From: a virus
Length of the DNA stretch: 64,000 nucleotides
Virus record (IMG/VR): IMGVR_UViG_3300045988_069864
Direction: 5' to 3' (one strand)
Position numbers and translations under genes: made by a program. Shown here one piece after another: positions 177 to 60,892 of this stretch. Below the pieces are notes generated by a model that saw nothing but the letters and a program-made list of their open reading frames with translations, had not been told where the DNA came from and made no database searches. The first letter of the stretch is position 1. Each line of letters starts with the position of its first letter.

Positions 177-204
177 GTCGCGTTAGAAACGTATTCCTTT
201 ATGC
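177..204 (+). promoter_or_regulatory. Bipartite promoter-like motif, copy 1 (GTCGCG-N16-TTATGC)
   Basis: GTCGCG TTAGAAACGTATTCCT TTATGC. Same 6+16+6 architecture as the other copies. Confidence 0.5.
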
Positions 205-263
205 AGAGTAAATTCTGATAACTCTTGCAAGAGTCTTGGCAAAAGCTAGGACTCTTTATTTTT
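205..263 (+). ncRNA. ORF-less short transcript or attenuator candidate with alternative hairpins and a terminator
   Basis: AGAGT 205-209 can pair with ACTCT 221-225. ACTCTTGCAAGAGT 221-234 is a perfect 14-nt palindrome. AAGAGTC 229-235 pairs with GACTCTT 250-256 and is followed by TATTTTT. Confidence 0.3.
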
Positions 264-279
264 CCAGTTTTGACAAAAA

Positions 280-307
280 TTCGCGAAAAAAACAACGACT
301 GTTATGA
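280..307 (+). promoter_or_regulatory. Bipartite promoter-like motif, copy 2 (TTCGCG-N16-TTATGA)
   Basis: TTCGCG AAAAAAACAACGACTG TTATGA. Immediately followed by hairpin AAGAGAA 307-313 / TTCTCTT 320-326 and TTAGCTTTTT. Confidence 0.55.
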
Positions 308-370
308 AGAGAAGATACTTTCTCTTTTAGCTTTTTCAAAAATGATATTTCACGAAAGGAGGTCCACTGA

Positions 371-661
371 ATGTTAGAAAACAAATTCCAAGCAAATCTT
401 ATCAAAGAGCTTAAGAAACTGTTTCCTGGATGCATCGTAATGAAGAATGACTCGAGTTATATTCAAGGCATTCCCGATTTGTTGATTCTCTTCCAGGATA
501 AGTGGGCTTCCCTCGAAGTCAAGAAGAACGCGAGCGCGTCAAAACGACCGAATCAAGAATACTATGTTGGGATGATGGATAAGATGTCATTTTCTCGTTT
601 CATCTGTCCCGAGAACAAAGACGAAATCCTAAATGAACTTGCAAATAAATTCAACAGTTAA
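371..661 (+). CDS. VRR-NUC-like PD-(D/E)xK nuclease (Holliday-junction-resolvase-like)
   Basis: 96 aa. 'GIPDLLIL...ASLEVKK' gives the D...ExK core. SD GAAAGGAGG lies upstream. Confidence 0.55.
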   Translation: MLENKFQANLIKELKKLFPGCIVMKNDSSYIQGIPDLLILFQDKWASLEVKKNASASKRPNQEYYVGMMDKMSFSRFICPENKDEILNELANKFNS

Positions 662-676
662 GGAGAATAGTTAGCA

Positions 677-1234
677 ATGATATTTAACAATCATCGAAAT
701 CTTAACGGTCTACACGCTCCGTTCTCAGCGAGTCAATCCAGTTGGCTTCGCTATGATATTTCAAAAGCAATTGAAGTTTATCAAAACAAGAAAGCTGCAG
801 AGATTGGAACTAAACTCCATGCCTGGGCTAAAGAAACTATAGATCTTGGTATTAAGCAGCCTCGTTCTAAGAAGACCCTTTATGCGTATGTGAATGACGC
901 AATTGGTTTTCGAATGGCGACTGAGGTGGTGTTATATTATTCTGACAGATTCTTCGGTACTGCCGATGCTATTTCTTTCAGAGATAATTTTTTGAGAATC
1001 CACGATTTGAAAACTGGAAAAGGACCTGTACACAGAGAGCAGCTTGAAGTATATGCTGCTCTTTTTTGTTTGGAGTACAGAGTCAAACCTAGTGATATTC
1101 GTATCGAGTTGAGAATCTATCAGAACGATGACTGTGATATTTGGGAACCGTCTCCCGAAGACATCGAGTTCGTTATGAACAAGATTATTACTCTGAATAA
1201 AGAACTTGAACGACTAGATTTTGAGGAGGCTTAG
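677..1234 (+). CDS. PD-(D/E)xK exonuclease-fold protein (RecB/Cas4-like, no Cys cluster)
   Basis: 185 aa. 'GTADAISF...LRIHDLKTGK' is a D...DxK nuclease core. Confidence 0.45.
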   Translation: MIFNNHRNLNGLHAPFSASQSSWLRYDISKAIEVYQNKKAAEIGTKLHAWAKETIDLGIKQPRSKKTLYAYVNDAIGFRMATEVVLYYSDRFFGTADAISFRDNFLRIHDLKTGKGPVHREQLEVYAALFCLEYRVKPSDIRIELRIYQNDDCDIWEPSPEDIEFVMNKIITLNKELERLDFEEA

Positions 1235-1238
1235 TACC

Positions 1239-4187
1239 ATGAATTCTGTTGCGGAAGAAATTAAATCATATTATGGTTCTAATTCCATGAACGATGACGA
1301 ATACCTTGAACATTATGGCATGCCTCGCCGTAGTGGTCGATATCCTTGGGGTTCTGGCGAAAATCCATATCAGCACGGTAATGATTTTCTAAGCCGAATC
1401 GAAAAACTAAAAAGTAAAGGCTGGACCGAGACACCTGAAAACATCAAGAACGAATTTGGTCTGACTACTACTCAATATCGAGCTCAGAAAGCATTGGCTA
1501 AAGATGAACGTCGAGGCTATGACGTGGCGAGAGCTAAATCGTTGGAAAGTGACGGTTTGGGTCCTACTGCCATTGCCAAAAAGATGTCTGAAGAACAAGG
1601 CAAAAACATCAACGAATCTACTATTCGTTCTTGGCTTAATGAAGAGTCCGAAGCTCGTATGAATCAGGCTAAACAGACTGCTGAATTTATTAAGAAACAA
1701 ATCGACGAAAAAGGCATGATTGATGTCGGTGTTGGTGTTGAACGAGAACTTGGTATATCCAAAGAAAAACTTAATCAAGCACTGGCAATTCTCGAAGCTG
1801 AAGGCTATGAGCTTTATGGCGGTCGTGTTCCGCAGGTTACTAATCCTAATCAAATGACCACTCTTAAAGTCATTTGTCCTCCTGGTACTGAACATAAAGA
1901 TATTTATGACTACGAAAATGTACATTCTCTGAATGAATATATTTCTCGTGACGGTGGCGAAACTTACGAAAAGAAGTTCCACTATCCTGAAAGCATGGAT
2001 GCTAGTCGTCTTATGATTCGGTATAAAGAAGATGGCGGTATCGATAAAGATGGTGTTATTGAACTTCGTCGAGGCGTTCCTGATTTGTCTCTTGGTGAAT
2101 CTCGTATCTCTCAGGTTCGAATCCTCGTTGACGGTGACAGATATTTGAAGGGCATGGCTGTTTATTCGGATAATATGCCTGATGGTGTCGATGTTATATT
2201 TAACACCAATAAGTCCAAAGACGTTGCTATGCGAGATGTCCTCAAAAAGATTAAGGATGATCCGGACAATCCCTTTGGTTCCGCTATCAAGGATGTGGAA
2301 AAGGGCGGTCAGTATTGGTATGATCCTAAAACCGGTAAACAAGTATCGGCATCAACTCCTGGTGCTAAGTTGGGTCTGATCAATAAACGAGCTGATGAGG
2401 GCGATTGGTCTGAATGGAAAGATGCACTTCCTGCTCAGTTCTTGTCTAAGCAATCATTGCATTTGGCTAAACAGCAGCTGAACATTGCCGCTTCTGATAA
2501 AGAGGCTGAGTTTGCAGAACTAAGTTCACTTACTAATCCTACTGTAAAGAAGTATTTACTTAATAAATTTGCAGATGAGTGTGATTCAGCAGCTGTACAT
2601 CTTCAAGCAGCAGCTCTGCCTGGTCAGAAGTATCATGTTATATTACCTGTTACTTCTATGAAGGACACCGAAGTGTATGCTCCAAGGTATGAAAATGGAT
2701 CTAAGCTCGCACTTATTCGATATCCTCATGGCGGCACCTTTGAGATTCCTATCTTGACTGTTAATAATAAACAGAAAGACGCCAAAGCTTTGCTTGGCAC
2801 TGATATTTCGGATGCTATCGCTATCAATAGTAAGGTTGCTGAGCGTCTGTCTGGTGCCGACTTTGATGGCGATACCGTTATGTGTATTCCTACTCATGAC
2901 AAAGCTGGCAAGGTCAAGATTACATCTACGAATCCGCTTAAGGGTCTCGAAGGATTTGATCCCAAGACTTCTTATGGTGCTACGAAGACTGTCAAAGATT
3001 CCGATGGCACTGAACATTATCTTCGTAACGGTAAAGAATATAAGATTATGAAGAATACTCAGACCGAAATGGGTAAGATCTCTAATCTTATCAGCGATAT
3101 GACACTGAAAGGTGCTAATGATGACGAGTTAGCTAGAGCTGTTCGTCATAGCATGGTTGTCATCGATGCCGAGAAACATAAGCTTGACTATAAGCAGAGC
3201 GAGATCGACAATAACATCTCCGCTCTTAAGAAGGAGTACCAGAATGGCGGCGGTGCATCCACCTTGATCTCTAGAAGTAAAGGCGAAATCCCGGTTCTTA
3301 AACGACAGGGTAGCCCTATAGTCAATACCAAGACCAAGAACGGAAAACCCAACCCCGACTATGATTCTAGTAAGCCTGAAGGGTCTCTCATATGGAAGAC
3401 TGCCGATGATGTGAATTACCAGTATACAAAAGTAAACAAGAAAACTGGTGAAGTTACTACCATCACCAAGCAACGTACTCAGAAGAGTACTCGTATGGCG
3501 GAGACAACCGATGCACGTACCCTTATCTCGGATGCAGATACCCCCATGGAACGGGCCTATGCGGACTATGCTAACCATATGAAGAACCTGGCCAATAAGG
3601 CCCGCATTGAGGTATCCACTACCGGTAAGATAGCATACTCCTCTAAGGCTAAAGCTACCTATCAGACCGAGGTAAAGAGTCTCAATGATAAGCTGAATAA
3701 TGCCTTACTTAATGCTCCACGAGAGCGACAGGCTACCCTTAAGGCTAATGCAGAGGTACAGCGCAAGGTTGATGCTGCTAAGGCCGCTATCAAAAAAGAG
3801 AACCCCGAGGCCACTAATAGGGAGATTAACAAGCTTGTTCGTAAGAAGATTGATGTTAAGAAGACCGGACAGCAGGCTCTTACTAAATATCGTACTGAGG
3901 CTGGTTCTGTAAAACGTAGTGATCGATCTATTAAGATTACTGATAAGGAATGGGAAGCTATTCAGGCTGGTGCTATTAGTGAGAATGTACTTAAGAAGAT
4001 CCTTGCTAACTCTGACGTGGATAGTCTTAGACAAAGAGCAACGCCTCGTTCTACAACAACGCTTAGTACAGCTAAGATTAATAGAATCAAAGCTATGCGC
4101 GCTTCTGGTAAAACACTTAATGAAATCGCAAATGCGCTTAATGTTTCTGCATCAACAGTTGCAACTTATGTGAAAGGAGTGAATTGA
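1239..4187 (+). CDS. Large multidomain protein with an RdRP/YonO-like two-barrel RNA polymerase catalytic motif and several HTH-like segments
   Basis: 982 aa from ATG 1239 (SD GAGGAGG 1223-1229). 'LALIRYPHGGTFEI...AERLSGADFDGDTVM' (DFDGD at nt 2859-2873) matches the metal-binding loop pattern of beta-prime, YonO and eukaryotic RdRP DPBB domains. C-terminal 'TLNEIANALNVSASTVATYVKG' looks like an HTH. Confidence 0.5.
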   Translation: MNSVAEEIKSYYGSNSMNDDEYLEHYGMPRRSGRYPWGSGENPYQHGNDFLSRIEKLKSKGWTETPENIKNEFGLTTTQYRAQKALAKDERRGYDVARAKSLESDGLGPTAIAKKMSEEQGKNINESTIRSWLNEESEARMNQAKQTAEFIKKQIDEKGMIDVGVGVERELGISKEKLNQALAILEAEGYELYGGRVPQVTNPNQMTTLKVICPPGTEHKDIYDYENVHSLNEYISRDGGETYEKKFHYPESMDASRLMIRYKEDGGIDKDGVIELRRGVPDLSLGESRISQVRILVDGDRYLKGMAVYSDNMPDGVDVIFNTNKSKDVAMRDVLKKIKDDPDNPFGSAIKDVEKGGQYWYDPKTGKQVSASTPGAKLGLINKRADEGDWSEWKDALPAQFLSKQSLHLAKQQLNIAASDKEAEFAELSSLTNPTVKKYLLNKFADECDSAAVHLQAAALPGQKYHVILPVTSMKDTEVYAPRYENGSKLALIRYPHGGTFEIPILTVNNKQKDAKALLGTDISDAIAINSKVAERLSGADFDGDTVMCIPTHDKAGKVKITSTNPLKGLEGFDPKTSYGATKTVKDSDGTEHYLRNGKEYKIMKNTQTEMGKISNLISDMTLKGANDDELARAVRHSMVVIDAEKHKLDYKQSEIDNNISALKKEYQNGGGASTLISRSKGEIPVLKRQGSPIVNTKTKNGKPNPDYDSSKPEGSLIWKTADDVNYQYTKVNKKTGEVTTITKQRTQKSTRMAETTDARTLISDADTPMERAYADYANHMKNLANKARIEVSTTGKIAYSSKAKATYQTEVKSLNDKLNNALLNAPRERQATLKANAEVQRKVDAAKAAIKKENPEATNREINKLVRKKIDVKKTGQQALTKYRTEAGSVKRSDRSIKITDKEWEAIQAGAISENVLKKILANSDVDSLRQRATPRSTTTLSTAKINRIKAMRASGKTLNEIANALNVSASTVATYVKGVN

Positions 4188-4189: not shown

Positions 4190-4438
4190 ATGGAAAACGT
4201 TTGTGCATTGACCACAATTGACAATCCTTTTGATCCTTTTGATCAATTCAGTCAATGGTTTCTCTTTGATACAGAAAAAGGTTACAATTCTTGTTCTTAT
4301 CTTGCTCGAATTGCACAAACTTCTGATGAAATGTCTGAACAAGAATACAATCATGAAGTTGAACGAGCAATTGACGAAATTGTCACGATTAATCCTTTAG
4401 GAATTTACAAGAAAGTAACCAAACCCCAGGTAAATTAA
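4190..4438 (+). CDS. hypothetical phage protein
   Basis: 82 aa ORF, ATG 10 nt after AGGAG, abutting the stop of the upstream gene. Confidence 0.5.
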   Translation: MENVCALTTIDNPFDPFDQFSQWFLFDTEKGYNSCSYLARIAQTSDEMSEQEYNHEVERAIDEIVTINPLGIYKKVTKPQVN

Positions 4439-4458
4439 AAAGATGTAGAGCTAATGAT

Positions 4459-4467
4459 GGGGGGGGG
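4459..4467. repeat. G9 homopolymer tract
   Basis: GGGGGGGGG in a roughly 40% GC genome. It can pair with CCCCCTCC about 14 nt downstream. Confidence 0.9.
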
Positions 4468-4624
4468 TCGCTAAAACTACACCCCCTCCTCACATCGCCG
4501 GCCTCCTTGAAAATTCTCCGGAGGGATTTTTCAGAAAAGCATTTATATTTGAGGTAATGACGATACCAGTACGCTTAAGGTCGAGGAAGTTACGAATTGA
4601 TTGAGAATTAGATTGCTATTTTCC

Positions 4625-4727
4625 TGGGTAGTGTTTAGACGAGTTCATAAGGTTGAATATTGGTCATACTTTGCGCTCCTTTCAGTGAATCGTTATTGAC
4701 CTTATGGGCTCCTTTAAGCACTACCCA
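4625..4727 (+). other. Long imperfect inverted repeat or hairpin in the non-coding region upstream of terS (cos/pac or structured-RNA candidate)
   Basis: The left arm TGGGTAGTGTTTAGACGAGTTCATAAGGTTGAATA matches the reverse complement of the right arm TATTGACCTTATGGGCTCCTTTAAGCACTACCCA at about 27 of 34 positions. Confidence 0.45.
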
Positions 4728-6209: not shown

Positions 6210-6764
6210 ATGAAGTCTTATAATCACTCTGAAGAACTCTATCATCATGGCATCAAAGGTATGAAATGGGGTGTCCGGCGCTATCAGAATTCCGATGGTT
6301 CGCTTACTGCGGCTGGTCAGAAACGATACGCGAGAGATGCTCGAGAAAAAGAATTTAATAAGTATGATTCGTCCACTAAGACATATTACAAAACGTCTAA
6401 GAAAAATGGGCGAAGTGATTTGGAAGCAGATCCTAAACGTTATGCTAAAGAGGATCTATCTCGAACCAAAAAACTTGCTGACGAGTCAGCCAATCTTACA
6501 AGAAATCTAAAAACTGCTAATGATCAGGCTATCAAAAGTAAACCCAAGACTCGAATGGACCTTAGCAAGATGACTGACCAGGAGATGCGGGAAAAGATTA
6601 ATCGAGAATTACTTGAACGACAGTATAACGATGTCTTTAATCCTCCTACTGTTTCTAAGGGTCGGGAGTATGCAAGCAAAGTTCTCGATACTACTGGTAC
6701 TGTTTTGGCTATTACTAGTTCCGCATTGGGAATCGCCCTGGCTATTAAAGATCTTAAGGGGTGA
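6210..6764 (+). CDS. 'ELYHHGxKGxKWG' paralog 1 (basic, C-terminal TM helix), function unknown
   Basis: N-terminus 'SEELYHHGIKGMKWGVRRYQNSDGSLTAAGQKRY'. SD AAGGAGGG. C-terminal 'VLAITSSALGIALAI'. Confidence 0.7.
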   Translation: MKSYNHSEELYHHGIKGMKWGVRRYQNSDGSLTAAGQKRYARDAREKEFNKYDSSTKTYYKTSKKNGRSDLEADPKRYAKEDLSRTKKLADESANLTRNLKTANDQAIKSKPKTRMDLSKMTDQEMREKINRELLERQYNDVFNPPTVSKGREYASKVLDTTGTVLAITSSALGIALAIKDLKG

Positions 6765-6772
6765 TCGTCAAA

Positions 6773-7828
6773 ATGGAATTGTATCACCACGGAATCAAGG
6801 GACAGAAGTGGGGCATTCGCCGGTATCAATATGCTGACGGTACTTATACTCCTGCTGGTAGGAAGCGATACGGCGTTAGTCAAAGTTCAAGTAATGCTCA
6901 ACGTGTTGCAACCATGATGGGTATGAGAGTAAAAGATGTGGTTAACACAGCGAGAACTCAAGTTACCGGAAGACAGTATGTTGATACATATCTGAAACGA
7001 GGTACAACATTTGCAAGAATTCAAACTTCTAAAGAGTTTGAAAATTTTGCATTCTACGCCACTTATAAGAAGGCTGACTCTGATAAGTATATGGGTCTGT
7101 TTGGGAAGAATCTGACTAGTCGTGCAAACAGTGATGCTAAGCGAGCAGAGAAAACAGCCAATGCTTCCGGTAGTGAAGCTGATGCCGCCACAGCTAAGCA
7201 ACTTCGAGATAAAGCTAACAACATGAAAGTTTATCAGCTGAAGCTAGAGACTACTAAGAAACTGAAAGTTCCGTCAGATGAGAATGCTAGTGACATCACT
7301 GCTAATCTACTGAAAGACTCTGAGTTTAAGAAGAATGTTGTTGCTTCAATTGAGGACTCGAAGGAAAAGATGCGTCGTCCTACTCAACAGGTCTTGTTTA
7401 AGCAAGCTCAAAATGCTTTGAATAAAGATCCGAGTAGGATGACAACTTCAGAGAAGGTTGCAGTCTACAAAGCTTTGAATCTGTCTTTGACTAATCACAA
7501 TCAGCAGGAAGTTGCAGCTCAGGCTAAGTTCTACTCGGAACTAAAGAAGAAAGGTTACAATGCACTGCTCGATTATAATGACAAAGATTATTCGAGTTAT
7601 CATGCTAAGCGACCAATGATCGTGTTCGATACTGACTCCGTGAAGCTTCAATCAGTGGCTGAGGCTAATCCGAAGGTCGTGGAAAAGATGTATGCGAAGT
7701 ATAACGCTGAACGAATCATGAAGGAAGTCGGAGCCAATACAATTGGCTATGTCGGCAAACTTGGTAAAAAGACTGTATCCGAATGCGAATCTTATGTGAA
7801 ACAGAAAACTGACAGCTATTTGAGTTAA
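6773..7828 (+). CDS. 'ELYHHGxKGxKWG' paralog 2, function unknown
   Basis: N-terminus 'MELYHHGIKGQKWGIRRYQYADGTYTPAGRKRY'. 351 aa. Confidence 0.7.
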   Translation: MELYHHGIKGQKWGIRRYQYADGTYTPAGRKRYGVSQSSSNAQRVATMMGMRVKDVVNTARTQVTGRQYVDTYLKRGTTFARIQTSKEFENFAFYATYKKADSDKYMGLFGKNLTSRANSDAKRAEKTANASGSEADAATAKQLRDKANNMKVYQLKLETTKKLKVPSDENASDITANLLKDSEFKKNVVASIEDSKEKMRRPTQQVLFKQAQNALNKDPSRMTTSEKVAVYKALNLSLTNHNQQEVAAQAKFYSELKKKGYNALLDYNDKDYSSYHAKRPMIVFDTDSVKLQSVAEANPKVVEKMYAKYNAERIMKEVGANTIGYVGKLGKKTVSECESYVKQKTDSYLS

Positions 7829-9209: not shown

Positions 9210-10955
9210 ATGGCATTATCAAATACTGCCGTGCCAATCTATTACGGCCAGTTTCGTGATGCCGTATTGAGAGGCGAAATTCCAGTATGTAAAGAAATCT
9301 CTATGGAGATGAACCGAATAGATGGACTCATTGCAAACCCCGGCATTTGGTATGATGACCAAGCTGTCGAGGGTTTTATTGCATTTTGTGAGAATGAACT
9401 TACGTTGACTGACGGAGAAGACCTTAAGCTTCTAGATTCATTCAAACTTTGGGCTGAGTCAATTTTCGGTTGGTATTACTTTGTAGAGAGAAGTGTATAT
9501 GTTCCGTCTCCGGATGGTCATGGCGGTCACTATGAAAGAAAGTCTATTAAGAAACGATTAGTTAACAAGCAATATCTCATCGTTGCTCGCGGTGCGGCTA
9601 AATCAATGTATGGTGCATGTCTTCAGAGTTTCTTCTTGAATGTGGATACCTCAACTACAAATCAGATCACGACTGCTCCGACAATGAAGCAGGCTGAAGA
9701 AGTTATGAGTCCAATTCGAACCGCAATTACTCGATCCCGTGGACCATTGTTTAAGTTCTTAACCGAAGGTTCACTTCAGAATACGACCGGATCTAAAGCC
9801 AATCGTCAGAAGCTTGTACCTACCAAAAAGGGTATTGAGAATTTCTTAACTGGTTCTCTTCTTGAGATCCGACCGATGACAATCGACAAGATTCAGGGTT
9901 CTCGTGCGAAGATCTGGACAATCGATGAATGGCTTTCTGGCGATGTTCGAGAGGACATTGTTGGTGCTGCTGAACAGGGTGCTTCCAAGAACGACGACTA
10001 TCTGATCGTAGCTATCAGCTCAGAAGGTACCGTCCGTAATGGTAGTGGTGATACGATCAAAATGGAATTGATGGACATCTTAAAAGGTGATTACATCAAT
10101 CCTCATGTGTCAATCTGGTGGTACAAGCTGGATGACATTGACGAAGTCGCTAATCCTGATATGTGGCTCAAAGCCAACCCGAATCTCGGTAAGACTGTCA
10201 GCTATGAAACTTATCAGCTTGACGTCGATCGAGCCGAAAAAGCTCCTGCTACACGAAACGACATCCTGGCAAAGCGCTTCGGTATTCCGTGCGAAGGCTA
10301 TACGTATTACTTTACGTACGAGGAAACTCTTCCTCATCGGAGACGAGATTACTGGAGTATGCCGTGTGCACTTGGCGCTGACCTTTCTCAGGGCGATGAC
10401 TTCTGTGCATTTACGTTCATGTTTCCATTGTCCGATGGTTCATTCGGAATCAAGACTCGTAACTACATAACCGAGCTTACATTGATGAAGCTTCCCGGTG
10501 CTATGCGGAACAAGTACAACGAGTTCATGCGCGAAGGAAGCTTAATTGTTATGCCCGGAACTGTTCTTGACATGATGCAAGTTTATGAGGATCTGGATGA
10601 CCACATCGCCAAGTGCGAGTATGACGTTCGTTGCTTCGGTTTCGACCCCTACAATGCTCGTGAGTTTGTAGAACGATGGGAAAGAGAGAATGGTCCTTTT
10701 GGTATTGAAAAAGTCATTCAGGGTGCCAAAACTGAGTCTGTGCCTTTGGGTGAACTGAAGAAACTTTCTGAGGAAAGAATGCTTAGGTTCGATGAAGATC
10801 TTATGACTTTCGCTATGGGTAACTGCATTACTTTGGAAGATACCAACGGTAACCGTAAACTTTTGAAAAAGCGATATGATCAGAAGATCGATGCTGTTGC
10901 AGCTATGATGGATGCTTATGTGGCATTCAAACTTAATCGAGAAGCATTTGAATAA
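9210..10955 (+). CDS. terL: terminase large subunit
   Basis: 581 aa. Size, position before the portal gene and COG4626/Terminase_1-like sequence features (ATPase N-terminus, nuclease C-terminus). Confidence 0.85.
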   Translation: MALSNTAVPIYYGQFRDAVLRGEIPVCKEISMEMNRIDGLIANPGIWYDDQAVEGFIAFCENELTLTDGEDLKLLDSFKLWAESIFGWYYFVERSVYVPSPDGHGGHYERKSIKKRLVNKQYLIVARGAAKSMYGACLQSFFLNVDTSTTNQITTAPTMKQAEEVMSPIRTAITRSRGPLFKFLTEGSLQNTTGSKANRQKLVPTKKGIENFLTGSLLEIRPMTIDKIQGSRAKIWTIDEWLSGDVREDIVGAAEQGASKNDDYLIVAISSEGTVRNGSGDTIKMELMDILKGDYINPHVSIWWYKLDDIDEVANPDMWLKANPNLGKTVSYETYQLDVDRAEKAPATRNDILAKRFGIPCEGYTYYFTYEETLPHRRRDYWSMPCALGADLSQGDDFCAFTFMFPLSDGSFGIKTRNYITELTLMKLPGAMRNKYNEFMREGSLIVMPGTVLDMMQVYEDLDDHIAKCEYDVRCFGFDPYNAREFVERWERENGPFGIEKVIQGAKTESVPLGELKKLSEERMLRFDEDLMTFAMGNCITLEDTNGNRKLLKKRYDQKIDAVAAMMDAYVAFKLNREAFE

Positions 10956-34125: not shown

Positions 34126-34153
34126 TTCGCGTAAAATGCACCTCTTTTTATGA
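34126..34153 (+). promoter_or_regulatory. Bipartite promoter-like motif copy (TTCGCG-N16-TTATGA)
   Basis: TTCGCG TAAAATGCACCTCTTT TTATGA, directly abutting the SD AAGGAGG. Confidence 0.55.
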
Positions 34154-36572: not shown

Positions 36573-36588
36573 ACTTTCTATGTTATTT

Positions 36589-36610: not shown

Positions 36611-36637
36611 CATAAATTCGAGTTATTATTCTTTTTA

Positions 36638-37007: not shown

Positions 37008-37427
37008 ATGGCAACAGTAATACGAGCGGAACTATCAAAAAGAAATAAGTACTGGGTCGAGAAACACCGATACTACGAATTGAAACATTTTTGCTTGCAA
37101 TATCCAATTTGGAAACGAGCATATTCCGAGATTGAAATGCTAGGTGGGTGTACGTACGATCCAATGATATTTCATAGATCGAGTTCGCCAGGCGACCCAA
37201 CCGGACGACTAGCCGAGAAGCGGATGCTGTACCACGATCGAATGAAACTTGTCGAGCAAACAGCATTAGCCGCCGATTCGGAACTAGCCACTTATATTTT
37301 AAAGGGGGTGACTGAAGAACTAAGTTTTAACATGCTGAAATCAAAGTTGGACATACCGTGTAGTAAAGATACTTACTACGATCGGTACAGAAGATTCTTT
37401 TGGTTATTGGATGAAATAAGAGATTGA
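37008..37427 (+). CDS. RinA/ArpU-like (sigma region-4-like) phage transcriptional regulator
   Basis: 139 aa. 'YYELKHFCLQYPIWK' N-terminus and C-terminal 'DIPCSKDTYYDRYRRFFWLLDE' resemble the architecture of RinA-family late activators. Confidence 0.45.
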   Translation: MATVIRAELSKRNKYWVEKHRYYELKHFCLQYPIWKRAYSEIEMLGGCTYDPMIFHRSSSPGDPTGRLAEKRMLYHDRMKLVEQTALAADSELATYILKGVTEELSFNMLKSKLDIPCSKDTYYDRYRRFFWLLDEIRD

Positions 37428-37814: not shown

Positions 37815-37842
37815 TTCGCGCGAAAAGCATGTTCATTTATGA
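37815..37842 (+). promoter_or_regulatory. Bipartite promoter-like motif copy
   Basis: TTCGCG CGAAAAGCATGTTCAT TTATGA. Confidence 0.55.
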
Positions 37843-37944
37843 AGAGAGAACAAAAGTGAACATTAGAAAGACAAATTTATAAGATGCGACCGTCTATGCC
37901 TTCGCAAGAAGGAGGGAACACATATCGCACTCTCTTTTCATTTT
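37841..37944 (+). ncRNA. candidate ~100-nt ORF-less RNA closed by stem AAGAGAG/CTCTCTT plus a T-run
   Basis: 37842-37848 pairs with 37930-37936, followed by TTTTCATTTT. There is no SD-preceded ORF. The next motif copy follows immediately. Confidence 0.3.
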
Positions 37945-37970
37945 CGCGAAAAAAACTTGTTCCTTTATGC
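37943..37970 (+). promoter_or_regulatory. Bipartite promoter-like motif copy
   Basis: TTCGCG AAAAAAACTTGTTCCT TTATGC. Confidence 0.55.
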
Positions 37971-37997: not shown

Positions 37998-38150
37998 ATG
38001 ATGCCTGTAGGAGCTAAAATTGTGTCGAATATTGCTATTGGAATTATTTATATATGCACGATTCCAGTTGTAGTTACGACAATCAAAGCTGTCATTGCAG
38101 AAATCAAAAATATTCTTAGCGAAGAAGCATTTGACGACGAGGAGAGCTGA
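37998..38150 (+). CDS. small membrane protein (50 aa)
   Basis: SD TAGGAGGAA. TM segment 'IVSNIAIGIIYICTIPVVV'. Acidic tail. Confidence 0.5.
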   Translation: MMPVGAKIVSNIAIGIIYICTIPVVVTTIKAVIAEIKNILSEEAFDDEES

Positions 38151-38170
38151 GCAAGCTCTTCTTTTTTATT
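38143..38170 (+). terminator. intrinsic terminator
   Basis: AGAGCT GAGCA AGCTCT followed by TCTTTTTTAT. Confidence 0.7.
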
Positions 38171-38197
38171 TCGCGTAGAAAACATCCTCCTTTATGC
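38170..38197 (+). promoter_or_regulatory. Bipartite promoter-like motif copy
   Basis: TTCGCG TAGAAAACATCCTCCT TTATGC. The motif and 5'UTR are near-identical to the copy at 37943. Confidence 0.55.
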
Positions 38198-38607: not shown

Positions 38608-38823
38608 ATGGATTACATAATTCTCTTTGTTGTCTGTATCTTGGTTAATATTGCGATCAACATTATATTTTTCGATCATAAACCATCCGGAACCCTTCGA
38701 ATCGATCATTCTAATCCTGAGAAAGATATCTATCGTTTTGAAATAAACGATTTTGATGCACTGTCCAAGAAAAAGCGAATCGTCATCAATGTGGATAACA
38801 ATGCTTATCTTTCGCAAGAGTAG
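38608..38823 (+). CDS. small membrane protein (71 aa)
   Basis: SD AAAGGAGGTGGG. N-terminal TM 'IILFVVCILVNIAINIIFF'. Confidence 0.55.
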   Translation: MDYIILFVVCILVNIAINIIFFDHKPSGTLRIDHSNPEKDIYRFEINDFDALSKKKRIVINVDNNAYLSQE

Positions 38824-38874
38824 CATGCACTATTATGGAACGTAAGTTCACATATTTGAAAGGAGTAGTTATTT

Positions 38875-39270: not shown

Positions 39271-39305
39271 AAGAAGGGGCCGTGGAAACATGGTCTCTTC
39301 TTTTT
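39271..39305 (+). terminator. intrinsic terminator
   Basis: AAGAAGGGGCC..GGTCTCTTCTT followed by TTT. Confidence 0.6.
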
Positions 39306-39331
39306 CGCGAAATTTACAGCGTGTATTATGA
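39304..39331 (+). promoter_or_regulatory. Bipartite promoter-like motif copy
   Basis: TTCGCG AAATTTACAGCGTGTA TTATGA. Confidence 0.55.
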
Positions 39332-40250: not shown

Positions 40251-40276
40251 TTCGCGATAGAAACTCCTTCTTTAAT
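40249..40276 (+). promoter_or_regulatory. Bipartite promoter-like motif copy
   Basis: TTCGCG ATAGAAACTCCTTCTT TAATGA. Confidence 0.5.
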
Positions 40277-40303
40277 GAAAGATATTTAAAGGAGGAACCT
40301 ACT

Positions 40304-41025: not shown

Positions 41026-41053
41026 TTCGCGATGAAAACATTTTCCTTTATGA
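41026..41053 (+). promoter_or_regulatory. Bipartite promoter-like motif copy
   Basis: TTCGCG ATGAAAACATTTTCCT TTATGA. Confidence 0.55.
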
Positions 41054-41085: not shown

Positions 41086-41310
41086 ATGTTTGACATTATG
41101 CAAATCAAAACTAAATTCATGAGAGGCATGATCGCAAAATTGATCGGAATAGCAATTAAGAACAAATTGGGCTGTAAGATTAAAGTCCAATTTGACGATA
41201 TTGATATTCGCATCGATGACGAGATTGCTCACGTACATGTGAACGGTGGATTTGACATGAAAGTCGACGATCTAAAAAAGTTCACAAAGTTTATCGACGA
41301 AGAGGACTGA
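41086..41310 (+). CDS. hypothetical protein
   Basis: 74 aa. SD AAAGGAGAAAGG. Confidence 0.55.
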   Translation: MFDIMQIKTKFMRGMIAKLIGIAIKNKLGCKIKVQFDDIDIRIDDEIAHVHVNGGFDMKVDDLKKFTKFIDEED

Positions 41311-41337
41311 GCTAGCAATAGCTCTTCCTTTTGATAT
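41309..41337 (+). terminator. weak intrinsic terminator
   Basis: GAGCTA GCAA TAGCTC followed by TTCCTTTTGATATTT. Confidence 0.45.
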
Positions 41338-41365
41338 TTCGCAAAAATTACAAGCTGTATTATGA
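41338..41365 (+). promoter_or_regulatory. Bipartite promoter-like motif copy
   Basis: TTCGCA AAAATTACAAGCTGTA TTATGA, abutting the SD GAAAGGAGG. Confidence 0.5.
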
Positions 41366-42394: not shown

Positions 42395-42422
42395 TCCGCG
42401 AAATTTGCAAGTTATTTTATGA
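42395..42422 (+). promoter_or_regulatory. Bipartite promoter-like motif copy
   Basis: TCCGCG AAATTTGCAAGTTATT TTATGA, followed by the hairpin GAAGC-AGATA-GCTTC. Confidence 0.5.
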
Positions 42423-43984: not shown

Positions 43985-44911
43985 ATGAAATTCAATGATA
44001 TTATGGCGAGTGCATCTCGTACGTTCAGCAAGGTAAGTCTGCAGGGCAAGAAGTATGCACCCGAGGTTATGATTGTTGTCGGTGTCGTTGGTGTTGTAGC
44101 CAGTGCTGTTATGGCATGCAAAGCCACTACTAAGGCCGGTGCTATTGTAGAAGATACCAAGGATCAGATGGATCAGATCCATGAAGTAGCTGAAACTCAT
44201 GCTGAGGAATATTCTGAAGACGATATGAAGAAAGACACTGTCATCGTCTACACTCAGACTGCTGTCAAATTCGCAAAACTGTACGGTCCAGCGGTTATTC
44301 TTGGCGCTGCTTCTATCGCATGCATCCTTGGTTCTCATCATATTTTGAGTAAACGTAATGCTGCTTTGGCTGCTGCTTACGCAACTGTGGATAAAGGATT
44401 TAAAGAATACCGTGGTCGTGTAATCGAGCGTTTCGGCAGGGAACTCGATAAAGAACTTCGCTATAATGTCAAGGCGAAAGACTTTGAGGAAACTGTAGTC
44501 AACGAAGAAACCGGTGAAGAGACTAAAGTTACGAACACTGTAAACGTAGCTGATCCTAATGATTATAGTGACTATGCTCGTTTCTTTGATGATGGATGCA
44601 CTGGTTGGACCAAGGATTCTGAGCAGAATTTATATTTCCTGAAATGTCAGCAGAACTATGCTAATGAGCGTCTTCAGAAAAAAGGCTATTTGTTCCTGAA
44701 TGATGTGTATGAAATGCTTGGTATTCCTAAGACCAAGGCTGGTCAGATTGTTGGTTGGATCTATGACAAGAAGAATCCTGTAGGCGACAACTTTGTAGAT
44801 TTCGGCATTTACAACATGAACCGTGAGAAAGCTCGCGACTTTGTTAACGGTTATGAACGCACTATCCTGCTTGACTTCAATGTCGATGGTAATATTCTCG
44901 ACTTGATCTAA
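43985..44911 (+). CDS. 2-TM paralog 3, function unknown
   Basis: 308 aa. 'VMIVVGVVGVVASAVMACKATTKA', 'AVILGAASIACILGSHHILSKRNAALAAAYATVDKGFKEYRGRV' and 'KGYLFLNDVYEMLGIPK'. Confidence 0.7.
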   Translation: MKFNDIMASASRTFSKVSLQGKKYAPEVMIVVGVVGVVASAVMACKATTKAGAIVEDTKDQMDQIHEVAETHAEEYSEDDMKKDTVIVYTQTAVKFAKLYGPAVILGAASIACILGSHHILSKRNAALAAAYATVDKGFKEYRGRVIERFGRELDKELRYNVKAKDFEETVVNEETGEETKVTNTVNVADPNDYSDYARFFDDGCTGWTKDSEQNLYFLKCQQNYANERLQKKGYLFLNDVYEMLGIPKTKAGQIVGWIYDKKNPVGDNFVDFGIYNMNREKARDFVNGYERTILLDFNVDGNILDLI

Positions 44912-49800: not shown

Positions 49801-50861
49801 TAGCGCTGCTTGATATTGCTTCCATGCATCCTCATAGTCTTATTGCCGAGTGTTTGTTGGGTGTCCAATTCACTAAAGCATTCCGTGATATTGTTGAGGG
49901 TCGAGTGAGTATCAAGCATGAAGCTTGGGATGAAGTTAGCCATATGCTGGATGGTAAGCTTGTTCCTTATATTCAGAAAGTAAAAGATGGAGAACTAACT
50001 TCAAAACAGCTTGCTGATGCACTTAAGACGGCCATTAACTCGGTTTATGGTTTAACATCTGCCAGCTTCGACAATCCGTTCCATGATCCTCGTAACAAGG
50101 ATAACATCGTAGCTAAGCGTGGCGCTCTATTCATGATCGACTTGAAACATGAAGTTCAGAAACGAGGATTCACTGTTGCTCATATCAAGACGGACTCAAT
50201 CAAGATCCCGAATGCTACTCCGGAGATTATTGAGTTTGTTATGGATTTCGGCAAGCGTTATGGCTACACATTCGAGCATGAGGCTACTTATGAACGTATG
50301 TGTCTCGTGAATGATGCTGTTTATATTGCTAAGTATAAAGACGGTAAACATGCTGGAGAATGGACTGCTACTGGTAAGCAATTCGCTGTTCCTTATTTGT
50401 TCAAGACTCTGTTTAGCAAGGAACCTATTGAATTCGACGACGTATGTGAGACTTTCTCGGTTAGCTCTGCTTTATATTTGGACATGAATGAACGTCTACC
50501 CGAAGGCGAACATAACTACCAATTCATCGGAAAGGTTGGTCAATTCTGTCCGATTAAACCTGGCTGCGGTGGCGGTGAACTTGTTCGGGAGGGTGTCGAT
50601 AAGGATGGTAACACCAAATACGATTCTGCTTCTGGTGCCAAAGGTTATCGTTGGCTTGAATCTGAGATGGTTCGAGTTCTTGGTAAAGAGGAAGATATTG
50701 ATCGCTCGTTCTATGGAAAACTCGTAGATGACGCTGTTGAATCTATTTCTCAGTACGGAGATTTCGAACAGTTTGTCGGAGATGATATTTCTAATGAGGA
50801 ACCTCCGTGGAATAATCCAGACGAGCCTTGGAACGAAACAACCGCATTCGATGTGCGATAA
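46884..50861 (+). CDS. replicase fusion: D5/P4-type P-loop NTPase + AEP-like primase module + 3'-5' exonuclease/family-B DNA polymerase
   Basis: 1325 aa, GTG start after AAGGAGGA. Walker A 'YGSMGTGKST'. AEP-like 'VIDFD' and 'SGAGIHLHY'. Exo motifs 'FYDVEVFPN', 'NCRRYDNHML' and 'YCDNDVIATE'. PolB motifs 'DIASMHPHS' (A), 'KTAINSVYG' (B) and 'IKTDSI' (C). Confidence 0.75.
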   Translation: MLDFLLISTRSKKQGVVEVYPKFVIKKSKDLMIRGGDFYAVWIEDRGLWSTDEQDALYLIDQALDAYANDYKQKTSDTVITLHLWDAGSGMIDAWHKYCQKQMRDNFHMLDEKLIFLNTPTNKKDYASKKLNYSLEPGSIDAYEKIISTLYSPEERHKIEWAIGSIIEGDSKTIQKFVVFYGSMGTGKSTILNIIQQLFEGYYSVFDAKALGSSSNSFALEPFKNNPLVAIQHDGDLSKIEDNTRLNSLVSHEMMTVNEKFKSAYSNRFKCFLFMGTNNPVKITDGKSGLIRRLIDVSPSGNKLKPKEYKAAVKQVSFELGAIASHCHEVYLDDPGAYDDYIPVAMLGASNDFYNFIVDNYHIFKKDDGTTLKAAWEMYKVYCDEAKVPFSLSKMKFKEELKNYFWDFKERFVAEDGSRVRSYYTGFRTDKFENEIEDPKIPREEKPWIQFNSTESIFDKECADCFAQYASSKETPSKKWDDVTSTLKDLDTTKLHYVKVPENHIVIDFDIPDEKGEKSLERNLAAASSWPTTYAELSKSGAGIHLHYVYAGDVTRLSRVYDDHIEIKVFNGKSSLRRKLTKCNDIPIATINSGLPLKEDAKLINKDVVQTEKGLRTTIKKCLNKEVHPNTRCNVDFINDILTKAYDSGISYDVSDMKNAVIAFAAQSTNQSDYCIKLVNRMKFKSDEPSVNKEDESADLVFYDVEVFPNLFLVNWKIAGEGKPVVRMINPKPSEIEDLLRFKLVGFNCRRYDNHMLYARMIGYTTEQLYELSQKIINTKKGTKGVFFGEAYNLSYTDIYDFASAGNKKSLKKLEIEMGIHHQELGLPWDQPVPKERWIEVAEYCDNDVIATEAAFNYLKADWTAREILADLAGMTVNDTTNSLTTKIIFGNNKKPQGSFCYRDMSKPVTALDPEVEAFLNMACPEMMQAATDESYLPYFPGYKFEGGKSTYREEEVGEGGYVYSEPGIYFDVALLDIASMHPHSLIAECLLGVQFTKAFRDIVEGRVSIKHEAWDEVSHMLDGKLVPYIQKVKDGELTSKQLADALKTAINSVYGLTSASFDNPFHDPRNKDNIVAKRGALFMIDLKHEVQKRGFTVAHIKTDSIKIPNATPEIIEFVMDFGKRYGYTFEHEATYERMCLVNDAVYIAKYKDGKHAGEWTATGKQFAVPYLFKTLFSKEPIEFDDVCETFSVSSALYLDMNERLPEGEHNYQFIGKVGQFCPIKPGCGGGELVREGVDKDGNTKYDSASGAKGYRWLESEMVRVLGKEEDIDRSFYGKLVDDAVESISQYGDFEQFVGDDISNEEPPWNNPDEPWNETTAFDVR

Positions 50862-50889
50862 TTCGCTAATTTTGCATGTCATATTATGA
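50862..50889 (+). promoter_or_regulatory. Bipartite promoter-like motif copy
   Basis: TTCGCT AATTTTGCATGTCATA TTATGA, abutting the SD AAGGAG. Confidence 0.45.
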
Positions 50890-51938: not shown

Positions 51939-51966
51939 ATCGCGAATCCTACTTCTTCTTTAATGA
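51939..51966 (+). promoter_or_regulatory. Bipartite promoter-like motif copy
   Basis: ATCGCG AATCCTACTTCTTCTT TAATGA, abutting the SD AGGAGG. Confidence 0.45.
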
Positions 51967-52226: not shown

Positions 52227-52301
52227 GGGCCATTAGCTTAAGGGTAAAGCTGGCAGCTCATAACTGCTTGAGTGCGGGTTCGAATCCTGCATGGCCCACC
52301 A
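52227..52301 (+). tRNA. tRNA-Met(CAU): tRNA with anticodon CAT (Met elongator type, or Ile2 if lysidinylated), CCA encoded
   Basis: Cloverleaf folded by hand. Perfect 7-bp acceptor stem GGGCCAT/ATGGCCC. D stem GCTT/AAGC with a GG in the loop. Anticodon stem GGCAG/CTGCT with loop CTCATAA. T arm GCGGG-TTCGAAT-CCTGC. Discriminator A followed by CCA. Confidence 0.9.
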
Positions 52302-53276: not shown

Positions 53277-53471
53277 ATGAAAACTGCAAACTGGTATCGA
53301 CATCGATTGGCTAAATACACTGAGGATCATTATGGTAGATATTCGGATGAGATTGAGTTCTTTCCAGATCCGGATATTAATCAATGGAAATTCAAAATTC
53401 CATCTCTCAATCTCGTAGTGGTGTTGGTTTGTCTGGATAGCGGAAATATTAATGAATTTTCATTGTTTTAA
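53277..53471 (+). CDS. hypothetical protein
   Basis: 64 aa. The ATG is adjacent to the upstream stop. Confidence 0.45.
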   Translation: MKTANWYRHRLAKYTEDHYGRYSDEIEFFPDPDINQWKFKIPSLNLVVVLVCLDSGNINEFSLF

Positions 53472-53497
53472 CGCGGCCTAAACAAGCCCCTTTATGA
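53470..53497 (+). promoter_or_regulatory. Bipartite promoter-like motif copy
   Basis: AACGCG GCCTAAACAAGCCCCT TTATGA, abutting the SD AAGGAG. Confidence 0.45.
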
Positions 53498-59646: not shown

Positions 59647-59855
59647 TATTTTCCTGTAATCGGTTCGCTCTTTTTCCACGTATGTGTTCCGAATGCAAAC
59701 GTTATATTTGGATGGAACCTTATAGAAGATCAGACGTTTGGCATGGAGGTTTTGTCGATAGATATTTTAAGGGGGATTACAAGAAAGAAAACATTTGTAA
59801 GAAATGTCTACCTAAATTCTTACCAAAAACTGAGCAAGACACAACCGCGATATAA
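59643..59855 (+). CDS. small Cys-containing protein
   Basis: 70 aa. 'CSECKRY...CKKC'. Confidence 0.5.
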   Translation: MIFSCNRFALFPRMCSECKRYIWMEPYRRSDVWHGGFVDRYFKGDYKKENICKKCLPKFLPKTEQDTTAI

Positions 59856-59871
59856 ACCGATCCTTTAATGA
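59844..59871 (+). promoter_or_regulatory. Bipartite promoter-like motif copy
   Basis: ACCGCG ATATAAACCGATCCTT TAATGA, abutting the SD AAGGAG. It overlaps the end of the upstream CDS. Confidence 0.45.
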
Positions 59872-59887
59872 AAGGAGTTGATTTAAC

Positions 59888-60214
59888 ATGACTATTAGAG
59901 ATTGGCTGAAGAAACCGGTAAGGACATACACCTGTTCTGATGGATCGTATGAAATCCAAGAGAATCGACCGAGATTGTACTGTAATGATGGATATTCCAT
60001 TTCGGTACAAGCCAGCAGCTTTCATTACTGTAAACCGAGACTTAATGGGATACGGGACTATGAAAGCGTTGAGCTTGGTTTTCCGAGTACGGAAGATGAA
60101 CTCATTAACGAGTATGCCGAGAATGATTCGATTTACACGCAAACCGTTTATGGTTATGTGCCTATCGAAATTATTGAAAAACTTATCAACAAGCATGGAG
60201 GAATAAAAGCTTAA
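59888..60214 (+). CDS. hypothetical protein
   Basis: 108 aa. SD AAAGGAG. Confidence 0.6.
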   Translation: MTIRDWLKKPVRTYTCSDGSYEIQENRPRLYCNDGYSISVQASSFHYCKPRLNGIRDYESVELGFPSTEDELINEYAENDSIYTQTVYGYVPIEIIEKLINKHGGIKA

Positions 60215-60228
60215 TAAAACAATGAAGT

Positions 60229-60270
60229 AAGAGGTCATAAAATTGGCCTTTTACTTTTTCTTTTTATCTA
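60229..60270 (+). terminator. intrinsic terminator
   Basis: AAGAGGTCA..TGGCCTTTT followed by ACTTTTTCTTTTT. Confidence 0.6.
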
Positions 60271-60306
60271 ATTCTGAGTTGATTACGGGAAAGGAGAAAA
60301 AAGCAG

Positions 60307-60507
60307 ATGCCTGAAGAAGTATACGCTTATTTATGTGACACGCATAAGTGTGAGAAGTGCTCATTTCCTGAATGCTCCCATACAACCGATGAGAGACATC
60401 GATGTATTTCTAACGAAGCGACTGAGATGAGACTTGTCGGGTCGACCAATGGTATTAACTATTATATGGAATTTGTTGCGATAGAAGGGAGAAGCCATGA
60501 AAATTAA
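60307..60507 (+). CDS. small Cys/His-rich protein
   Basis: 66 aa. 'CDTHKCEKCSFPECSH'. SD AAAGGAGAAAA. Confidence 0.5.
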   Translation: MPEEVYAYLCDTHKCEKCSFPECSHTTDERHRCISNEATEMRLVGSTNGINYYMEFVAIEGRSHEN

Positions 60508-60850
60508 AAATGCAAAAATCCATTCCACAATGCTTGGACGAGAAGATCATGGAATTATGACATTCATGATTTATATTGATGCAGACGGTTCCGGTTGTGG
60601 CGTCGGAGGATATTGCCTTGATGAATTCAACTCTGCTACTCAGACAAGAGTGTTCCGAGCTGAGTCCATGGAAGCGATATCTAAGATTTTGGAAGTAGTC
60701 GGTGTGGATAAGTGGGAGGACCTTCCAGGAAAGTATATTCGCTTCGAGGATAACGGCTTGGGTTCTACGGTGACCAAGATTGGCAATATCATCAAGGATA
60801 AATGGTTCGATTTGGAAGAATTCTTTCTGCCAACGAAACACTTTTCCTAG
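60497..60850 (+). CDS. hypothetical protein
   Basis: 117 aa, overlapping the upstream stop. Confidence 0.55.
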   Translation: MKIKNAKIHSTMLGREDHGIMTFMIYIDADGSGCGVGGYCLDEFNSATQTRVFRAESMEAISKILEVVGVDKWEDLPGKYIRFEDNGLGSTVTKIGNIIKDKWFDLEEFFLPTKHFS

Positions 60851-60864
60851 TTATTGCTAGGGGT

Positions 60865-60892
60865 CACGCGAGAATTACATATCGTATTATGA
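60865..60892 (+). promoter_or_regulatory. Bipartite promoter-like motif copy
   Basis: CACGCG AGAATTACATATCGTA TTATGA. Confidence 0.5.

Follow-up and report, generated by a model that had tools for sequence, protein, structure and literature searches.

A conserved same-strand motif family in phages as a candidate promoter class of a YonO-like single-chain RNA polymerase

Introduction

YonO of the Bacillus prophage SPbeta, the only single-chain RNA polymerase of its type to have been characterised, transcribes the late operon from one start upstream of yonK; its promoter was left undefined, and the 2017 study left open whether the enzyme recognises promoters unaided (PMC5467207). No later description of the YonO promoter was found in the searchable literature. 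Start signals are described for two other phage enzymes: the non-virion polymerase of phiKZ starts at the G of TATG (PMC4666361), and the late promoters of AR9 read AACA-N6-T-R(+1) (PMC5312081). A putative polymerase with helix-turn-helix (HTH) domains at both ends is encoded in a supercluster of Actinobacteria and Firmicutes phages, where it was linked by HHpred to RNA-dependent RNA polymerase (RdRP) and YonO motifs and no promoters were described (bioRxiv 10.1101/842583). Here we report a motif of about 25-27 base pairs (bp) that recurs in 17 copies on one strand of the virus record IMGVR_UViG_3300045988_069864 from IMG/VR, a stretch of 64,000 nucleotides (nt) referred to below as the window. 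The window also encodes a 982-amino acid (aa) single-chain RNA polymerase-like protein.

The motif family is conserved together with the polymerase gene across host phyla and very probably constitutes a class of promoters. From its positions, base pattern and conservation we infer promoter function, a start site, a reader and read-through into the late genes. The reading that we favour, on which our judgement is evenly balanced, is that the motif would be recognised by the phage's own YonO-like single-chain RNA polymerase, with the 17 copies as its promoter class.

A same-strand motif family outside the late module

The preliminary description of this DNA defined the motif as two hexamers, TTCGCG and TTATGA, exactly 16 nt apart. 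In this literal form (TTCGCG-N16-TTATGA) it occurs five times in the window against 0.03 expected, and with up to one mismatch 11 times against 0.31, always on the + strand; at up to two mismatches the search is noisy (20 matches against 7.1 expected, four of them on the − strand). Members were defined with a 30-nt weight matrix and a cut of at least 26 bits. This yields 17 sites at 26-38 bits, all on the + strand, with 13.6 (− strand) and 8.5 as the next best scores. Leave-one-out scores of the 17 copies range from 15 to 36, and the maxima of shuffled windows average 10.7, with one outlier at 23.7. Compared with shuffled controls and on both strands, enrichment is strong and, at 26 bits or more, confined to the + strand. 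The same-strand family is thus upheld as a set of 17 copies with a corrected site list: 15 of the starts given earlier stand, 40249 becomes 40251, and a copy at 38811 had been overlooked. The two sites listed as weaker variants, 36638 and 52156, were rejected at below 8 bits each, the former being a small palindrome or hairpin in the intergenic region between the repressor and cro genes.

All 17 copies fall between genes or reach no more than 2 nt into a stop codon, and the N16 spacing is rigid in every one. The region from 4.4 to 34 kb holds no copy by the weight matrix (top score 8.5, at 16652), as had been claimed. The invariant core reads C3-G4-C5 / A13-C14-A15 / C20-T21-n-T23-n-A25-T26-G27 and is followed by a purine-only run at positions 28-34; further information lies in G6, which is partly conserved, and in an A/T-only stretch at 7-12. 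The most informative positions are C3, G4, C5, C14, T23, A25, T26 and G27, and the outer bases of both hexamers are not among them. The bipartite definition is therefore right in that the literal pattern is enriched, and needs revision in that the information lies in three blocks. These blocks are 10-11 bp apart, a spacing expected if they are recognised along one face of duplex DNA. No RNA-type covariation or internal complementarity was found in the motif, and the top mutual-information pairs are neighbouring positions; a reading of the motif as an RNA structure was rejected, since distant positions show no covariation. Two subclasses proposed earlier are visible in the window, and across 141 related sites they reduce to a weak association of T12 with A22.

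Two copies stand upstream of the polymerase gene. The first (177..204, GTCGCG...TTTATGC; 27.9 bits, leave-one-out 19.9) heads a unit of only about 60 nt (203-262), which ends in a strong intrinsic terminator identified by folding (229..256) and may be a small RNA. The second (280..307, 32.5 bits) precedes the endonuclease-exonuclease-RNA polymerase operon and is positionally conserved. Beyond the structural module the copy at 34126..34153 follows the late-operon terminator and is abutted by a Shine-Dalgarno (SD) sequence with an ATG at 34169, and the copy at 37815..37842 is the first 3' of the immediate-early operon of cro and the gene for p139, a 139-aa protein discussed below. The top-scoring copy (37943..37970, 38.0 bits) is a putative promoter of the gene at 37998. 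It is followed by copies at 38170..38197 (after a terminator at 38139-38163), at 38811..38838 (TTCGCA...TTATGG, the overlooked copy; 27.9 bits, leave-one-out 21.5), at 39304..39331 (of the TATTATG type, after a terminator hairpin), at 40251..40278 (abutting the stop codon of the upstream gene), at 41026..41053 and at 41338..41365 (after a terminator at 41309-41324). The copy at 42395..42422 heads the replication operon through to the DNA polymerase gene, and the one at 50862..50889 lies 1 nt past the stop codon of that gene. Those at 51939..51966, 53470..53497 (2-nt overlap with the upstream stop codon), 59844..59871 and 60865..60892 (TATTATG type) complete the set.

A clear terminator hairpin precedes seven to eight of the 17 copies (280, 34126, 37815, 37943, 38170, 39304 and 41338); the hairpin before copy 60865 has no T-run. 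The statement that most copies follow a terminator was thus too strong. An SD sequence abuts the motif, with a start codon 14-16 nt past it, at 34126, 50862, 51939, 53470 and 59844. Copy 41338 also reads TTATGAGAAAGGAGG, with an ATG 11 nt past the motif and no gene called there, so that the earlier count of at least six copies abutting an SD resolves into five with a start codon and a sixth with an SD-like run. That copies stand behind terminators and ahead of genes, all in one orientation, and that their blocks are 10-11 bp apart points to a DNA signal for transcription initiation.

Conservation in related phages

A tblastn search with the 982-aa polymerase returned 251 phage records, among them FP_oengus, a Faecalibacterium phage, the group of Lactococcus phage 1706, and phages of Arthrobacter, Gordonia, Streptomyces and Rhodococcus. 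Every examined relative with a homologue of this polymerase also has the motif, in an unchanged register, so that the family extends to phages of Clostridia, Lactococcus, Arthrobacter and Streptomyces, which answers the question of whether related genomes share it. FP_oengus, with a guanine plus cytosine (G+C) content of 50%, has 14 sites with the consensus gACGCGAAAAAtaCAg..tcCTTTATGgAg; Circum (45% G+C) has about 10 sites (tCGCGTAAATTACAnGGGCTATAATgA); Scarif (59% G+C), of which record positions 18-55 kb (37 kb) were covered, has 13 sites (GTCGCAtATTTTACAyGGCCTATAATGAGA); and 1706 (34% G+C) has about nine sites (CRCATGTTTTACATAYACTATAGTAGAAAG). In all four the copies lie on the coding strand and outside the scanned parts of the structural modules. 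The CGC(G/A) and (T)ACA blocks hold their register from 34% to 59% G+C and across two host phyla.

The strand bias also holds in viral contigs. Eighty IMG/VR loci centred on the polymerase gene hold 168 sites on the polymerase strand against a single one on the other; the counts are 596 and one in a second set of 80 loci, chosen around homologues of the 139-aa protein. A near-universal copy lies 930-1000 nt 5' of the polymerase gene, before the endonuclease-exonuclease-polymerase operon, in the 80 viral loci and also in 87 distinct relatives. No copy was found within 1.5 kb downstream of the polymerase gene in the 80 IMG/VR loci. In 185,579 bacterial genomes the correctly spaced core occurs at no fewer than 120 loci, among the matches listed mostly in Clostridia; a phage marker protein accompanies 59 of the listed loci, and in most of these 59 the polymerase operon lies directly 3' of the match. 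A pattern of equal information mis-spaced by one base (N7 for N6, N4 before CTTTATG), which counts solely as a negative control, gave scattered single matches on both strands in IMG/VR. No description of the motif, and none of promoters in 1706, cluster AM, ReqiPepy6, Scarif or FP_oengus, was found in the searchable literature, which did not extend to the original 1706 and ReqiPepy6 papers.

A base pattern unlike that of sigma-70 promoters

The preliminary description took the motif for a phage-specific class and not an ordinary sigma-70 promoter, a view supported by the in-register conservation across host groups and by the base pattern. With positions 21-26 as the frame, the would-be −11 A (A22) is present in 32% of 126 sites and in 46% of 413 sites, and T23, A25, T26 and G27 are present in 90-99% of Clostridial-group sites. 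Conservation that is high at T23, A25, T26 and G27 and low at A22 is different, as judged from these base frequencies, from the way sigma region 2 reads DNA. The alternative frame, 24-29 (TATGAA), ends in A or G and never in T. TTCGCG matches the −35 hexamer TTGACA at two to three of six positions. Circum, Scarif and 1706 have TATAAT or TATAGT at positions 21-26 of their versions, and TTCGCG lies only 14 bp from TATAAT, against a sigma-70 spacing of 16-18. No conserved sequence was found 5' of motif position 1, either at the polymerase-locus sites or in the 87 relatives. Neither the −35 nor the −10 that would place the motif among sigma-70/sigma-A promoters was found. On the − strand of the window the repressor side does carry TTCGCA-N18-TATAAT, as stated earlier.

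Predicted start site

Transcription is predicted to start at about G27 or position 28, that is, inside the motif, as the preliminary description had suggested. Support comes from SD cores, from a tRNA-like gene and from leader hairpins. At about 50 of 126 distinct polymerase-locus sites the SD core falls at motif position 28-30 with the start codon 7-10 nt further on, and among 413 further sites the SD starts at 28-31 in 82 of the 251 that have a scorable SD. In FP_oengus a tRNA-like gene starts at position 28 of one motif copy. In many relatives the purines from G27 onwards at the polymerase-operon copy pair with CTTTCTCTTTT further 3', ahead of a T-run, and G27 is the first base to pair in 16 of 39 sequences. 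The resulting terminator-like hairpin stands directly behind this copy (equivalent to 306-340 in the window) in roughly half of the 39 relatives, and in 17 of 39 by a strict terminator test. The purine-rich start behind the copy is conserved in 87 relatives. When upstream sequence is included in the folds, alternative pairings of pyrimidine and purine blocks confound the 5' limit of the hairpin, and only folds starting at G27 were used. The leader hairpin may act as an attenuator or as a 5' stabiliser. A start 6-8 nt past TwATGA would destroy the SD, tRNA-like and hairpin features, and a start at G27 or position 28 preserves them.

The 982-aa polymerase as the favoured reader

The upstream blocks are kept across two host phyla, and the reader of the motif should therefore be conserved too. 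The proteins common to the window phage, Circum and 1706 are structural proteins, DUF6353 proteins, the DNA polymerase, a helicase, an annealing protein, the endonuclease, the exonuclease, the 982-aa polymerase and an 82-aa protein. Of the scanned non-structural proteins in this shared set, none but the 982-aa polymerase showed a DNA-binding domain. Encoded at 1239..4187 on the + strand, it carries an ADFDGD motif, N-terminal HTH-like helices and a C-terminal HTH (aa 941-979; HTH_38 and GerE matches), and it matches phrog_4291 (E=0), a family annotated as 'RNA-dependent RNA polymerase'. A phmmer search against PDB sequences returned nothing relevant, and the AlphaFold model (pLDDT 50, pTM 0.26), built on a shallow alignment of 10 sequences, was not used for fold search. 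The gene shares an operon (371..1234 for the two preceding genes, + strand) with an endonuclease (371-661) and a PD-(D/E)XK exonuclease (677-1234), in a synteny kept in relatives. The 82-aa protein (4190..4438, + strand) is always encoded 3' of the polymerase gene, from 1706 to the actinophages. No split beta/beta' genes turned up among the scanned window proteins, which were a subset of the open reading frames (ORFs).

If the polymerase is the reader, the 17 copies would head the early, replication and polymerase transcription units. Its HTH domains would contact the CGCG block (at about −24) and the ACA block (at about −13), one helical turn apart, and the T-rich block C-T-w-T-w-A-T would melt. 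Transcription would begin at the G of TATG (position 27) or at the next purine, and the RNA would open with the purine run, often already holding the SD. Copy 280 would drive the operon of the polymerase itself, and transcription from it may pass the joined cos site and enter the 30-kb late operon. Such read-through is suggested because the region downstream has neither a motif copy nor another recognisable promoter.

A wider and more tentative proposal, possible rather than probable, is that CGCG-W6-ACA-N4-CTwTwATG(+1)-purines may represent the first promoter consensus for YonO-like single-chain two-barrel polymerases, with sigma-free recognition by the fused HTH domains, late genes devoid of a dedicated promoter and reached by read-through from the polymerase-operon copy across cos, and the host polymerase serving only for priming. 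Priming by the host would rely on the embedded TATAAT in lytic relatives, and on a sigma-like p139 in temperate Clostridial phages that lost TATAAT.

Comparison with described phage systems

YonO offers a parallel in gene arrangement: in both cases a gene for a single-chain DFDGD polymerase lies just upstream of the late module of a temperate Firmicutes phage. The primers used to map the YonO start bracket 240 nt that contain GTCATTTATGAGGG, and TCATTTATGAGGG in this P_YonO amplicon matches the start-proximal half of the motif (C-w-T-T-T-A-T-G-A-R-R). The sequence TCATTTATGA(A/G)GG occurs only twice in 40 kb of SPbeta (NC_001884 10446 and 10603, minus strand); both are found between yonN and yonK on the late strand, one of them within the amplicon. 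SPbeta differs in having no CGCG and ACA blocks, and a matrix scan of SPbeta for a full-motif site found none (maximum 9.4). The half-motif match counts in favour of the polymerase as reader, as a lead.

The signals of the jumbo phages phiKZ and AR9 resemble the motif as interpreted here in that the conserved element runs right up to the start, with no gap of 7 nt, and in that the reader is a two-barrel, non-host enzyme (a putative one in our case). With phiKZ the motif shares T-A-T-G with G as +1 (predicted in our case), here as T(w)ATG followed by purines; with AR9 it shares an ACA-containing block, a spacer and T-purine(+1). The differences are substantial. Both of those enzymes are multisubunit with split beta/beta' chains, whereas the protein considered here is a single 982-aa chain with fused HTH domains, and the motif is longer (about 25 bp) with an extra CGCG block. 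The AR9 enzyme needs uracil-containing DNA, and the distance from ACA to the predicted start is 11-12 nt here against 6 in AR9. The T7 and SP6 promoters are also contiguous signals of about 23-27 bp reaching up to a +1 G (a predicted one in the motif), with a purine-rich start and many copies on one strand, and the 1706 version of the motif contains ACACTATAG. Their polymerases have a right-hand fold in contrast to the putative two-barrel fold considered here, and the resemblance in sequence is probably coincidental.

Evaluation of alternative readers and functions

Several points weigh against recognition by the 982-aa polymerase. An hhalign comparison of the protein with YonO was insignificant (probability 0.9%). 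YonO serves late genes from one late promoter, and here all 17 copies lie outside the late module, which has none. The spacing CGCG-N16-TwATG is what a sigma-type factor would use, and p139, weakly sigma-like in fold, is encoded next to motif arrays in 80 relatives. There is also a bootstrapping problem: the polymerase operon is preceded by a motif copy, with no conserved sigma-A promoter upstream in 87 relatives, so that the host polymerase would have to fire the motif at least weakly or the polymerase would have to enter with the virion. This problem keeps alive a rival in which the host polymerase acts with p139.

The rival candidate p139 is an all-helical protein encoded in the immediate-early operon (37008..37427, + strand), with phrog_11237 as its only family assignment and an AlphaFold model at pLDDT 76. 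The preliminary description called it RinA/ArpU-like, a label without backing from Pfam or NCBIfam: no match to either, including ArpU TIGR01637 and DUF1492, was found even at E up to 1. Against BFVD its model gave weak matches (TM score about 0.4-0.55, E 0.01 or worse) to phage proteins named DUF1492, 'transcriptional activator', 'ECF sigma factor' and 'Sigma70', a fold-level likeness to small sigma-like activators only; the sole match below E=0.001 is an unannotated protein, and a comparison with PDB folds gave nothing. The gene neighbours cro, and transcription would cover about 31 kb from there to the terminase gene; RinA, ArpU and Ltr genes, in contrast, are located just before terS. In Circum, 1706 and the 37-kb Scarif part p139 was undetectable by tblastn and by a profile hidden Markov model (HMM). 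Circum gp27, which occupies the position of p139 before the first motif, was considered as a counterpart and rejected as a Dp-1-type holin.

The rival would make the motif a middle promoter read by host core polymerase that carries, or is activated by, p139, with CGCG as a −35-like and TwATG as a −10-like element 16 bp apart, and with the phage polymerase, expressed from copy 280, reading late genes only. It would solve the bootstrapping problem and fit both the late-gene precedent of YonO and the motif-free late module. The p139 gene sits in the sigma-A-driven cro operon just 5' of the first motif, and the distance from its end to the first motif 3' of it is −9 to +728 nt in 80 of 80 relatives, with an overlap of the stop codon in FP_oengus. 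The annotated fold matches, weak as they are, agree on sigma-like or activator proteins, and relatives without detectable p139 carry TATAAT or TATAGT in the motif, which the p139-bearing Clostridial group mostly does not. A described analogue would be the T4 middle promoter, which works by sigma appropriation and combines a MotA box at −30 with a sigma-70 −10. If 21-26 were the −10 of the motif, CGCG at about −30 to −27 would replace the −35 and could be read by an early protein such as p139. The −10-like hexamer, however, has no essential A in most Clostridial-group copies, and the predicted start does not fit this class either. No MotA or AsiA homologue turned up among the scanned proteins, with no dedicated search made, and the earlier comparison with the promoter/stem-loop cassettes of T4 holds as an analogy only. 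We regard the p139 rival as the main alternative but as rather unlikely, given that Circum, 1706 and the fetched Scarif part keep CGC(G/A) and ACA in register with no detectable p139, that motif copies also lie 240-870 nt upstream of p139 in many relatives, that a sigma-type start 6-8 nt past the element would fall in or beyond the SD at a third to half of the sites and inside the FP_oengus tRNA-like gene, and that p139 has no HMM tie to ArpU, RinA or sigma families and no PDB fold match.

Two further explanations were weighed. An unusual yet ordinary host sigma-A promoter, with its −10 at positions 21-26 and the upstream blocks as baggage or as a site for an accessory regulator, would suit the TATAAT or TATAGT of Circum, Scarif and 1706, and when infection begins, lytic relatives must have some promoter that the host enzyme reads. 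In Actinobacteria, promoters often function with a −10 element alone. We consider this improbable: the Clostridial group, the window included, has A at −11 in 32-46% only, no −35 lies at 16-18 bp (TTCGCG being at 14 bp), the T23/A25/G27 pattern is not sigma-70-like, SDs that abut the motif would be cut short by transcription starting about 7 nt downstream, and the conservation of CGCG and ACA across phyla would be left unexplained. The motif might instead be no promoter at all, acting as a one-orientation repressor or roadblock site similar to the stoperators of cluster A mycobacteriophages such as L5, or as an RNA-level signal (a processing site or a translational operator). Like stoperators it is asymmetric, intergenic or at gene ends, present in a single orientation to transcription and repeated, stoperators numbering tens of copies (PMC13313380), and it directly precedes ribosome-binding sites, a position from which an RNA operator could work. 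Stoperators, in contrast, are 13-14 bp repressor sites of temperate phages only and occur in early and late regions; the motif is about 25 bp long, is missing from the late module and is shared by the lytic phages 1706 and Scarif and by Circum, which is probably lytic. Neither a repressor nor an integrase is annotated in Circum or in the fetched part of Scarif, and 1706 has an ORF annotated 'putative repressor'. Against an RNA signal stand the seven to eight copies directly after terminators, where little RNA is expected, the missing complementarity and covariation, and the 10-11 bp block spacing, which suits recognition of duplex DNA. We consider a function other than promotion improbable as well.

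Late leader, cos and neighbouring loci

In the late leader and late module neither the motif nor its start-proximal half was found, and no candidate late promoter was found. Relatives retain a cos-like site found at 4455-4520 (GGGGGGGGTCGCTAAAACTACACCCCCTCC then CATCGCCGGCCTCC), which corresponds to the physical right end of 1706, and many IMG/VR contigs stop about 300 nt 3' of the polymerase gene. The window is therefore taken to be a permuted form of a cos-phage genome, in which the polymerase gene stands at the extreme right end. Past cos and ahead of the first late gene lies an RNA hairpin (4625-4727) of about 40 bp (−52 kcal/mol, z=−5.5), whose stem covaries in relatives and whose apical loop holds CTCCTTTC, complementary to an SD sequence. 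The hairpin could be a regulatory or antitermination RNA of the late leader. SPbeta, too, has an RNA, unannotated, 3' of the YonO start.

Two relatives carry further features near the motif or the polymerase gene. Just 5' of the polymerase gene of 1706, orf74 (1421-2080 region) encodes a 70-aa HTH protein resembling sigma-70 region 4, and the 450-nt gap behind it holds three to four copies of CTATCACGAAAAAACTTCGGGAAAACTTCGGGATT. In Scarif the gene just before the first detected motif (6586-6828) encodes an Acb2/Tad1 hairpin domain, as in anti-CBASS/Thoeris sponges.

Genome and host context

The window is the genome of a temperate siphophage; its G+C content is about 40%, and almost every gene is on the + strand. 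Profile matches identify a serine integrase (34648-36105) and a CI-like repressor (36111-36500), both on the − strand, and a cro-like gene lies at 36678-36899. Between the repressor and cro genes (36563-36652) are the imperfect palindromes GCGTAACGC and TCGCATAACGCGA, which are probably CI operators. The structural (late) module spans 30 kb, from about 4.8 to 34 kb, and includes the large terminase gene (9210-10955), which has 72% nucleotide identity to terminases of Gordonia and Streptomyces phages despite very different host G+C. A fused primase-polymerase, the DNA polymerase gene referred to above, is encoded at 46884-50861. Three DUF6353 paralogues lie at 39591-40250, 41588-42361 and 43985-44911, with a fragment at 34169-34459, and several are also found in FP_oengus and Circum. 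A tRNA-Met gene (52227-52301) has a terminator-like hairpin and the degenerate non-member site 52156 upstream.

A GenBank search for a near-identical phage found none. One IMG/VR contig encodes a polymerase 99% identical to that of the window. Prophage relatives are found in Lachnospiraceae, Oscillospiraceae, Ruminococcaceae and Clostridium leptum DSM 753, and because they sit in these Clostridial groups, the host is likely to be a gut Clostridium-class bacterium.

Significance

With several hundred candidate sites aligned, a +1 position predicted and DNA-binding domains fused to the polymerase, an in vitro test with one protein and one oligonucleotide is feasible. If recognition by the 982-aa polymerase is true, it would show how a minimal relative of cellular RNA polymerases locates promoters without sigma. 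It would also provide an annotation rule for transcription units across the Actinobacteria/Firmicutes supercluster, including abundant human-gut prophages of Lachnospiraceae and Oscillospiraceae, and a compact orthogonal polymerase/promoter pair for Gram-positive hosts may become possible.

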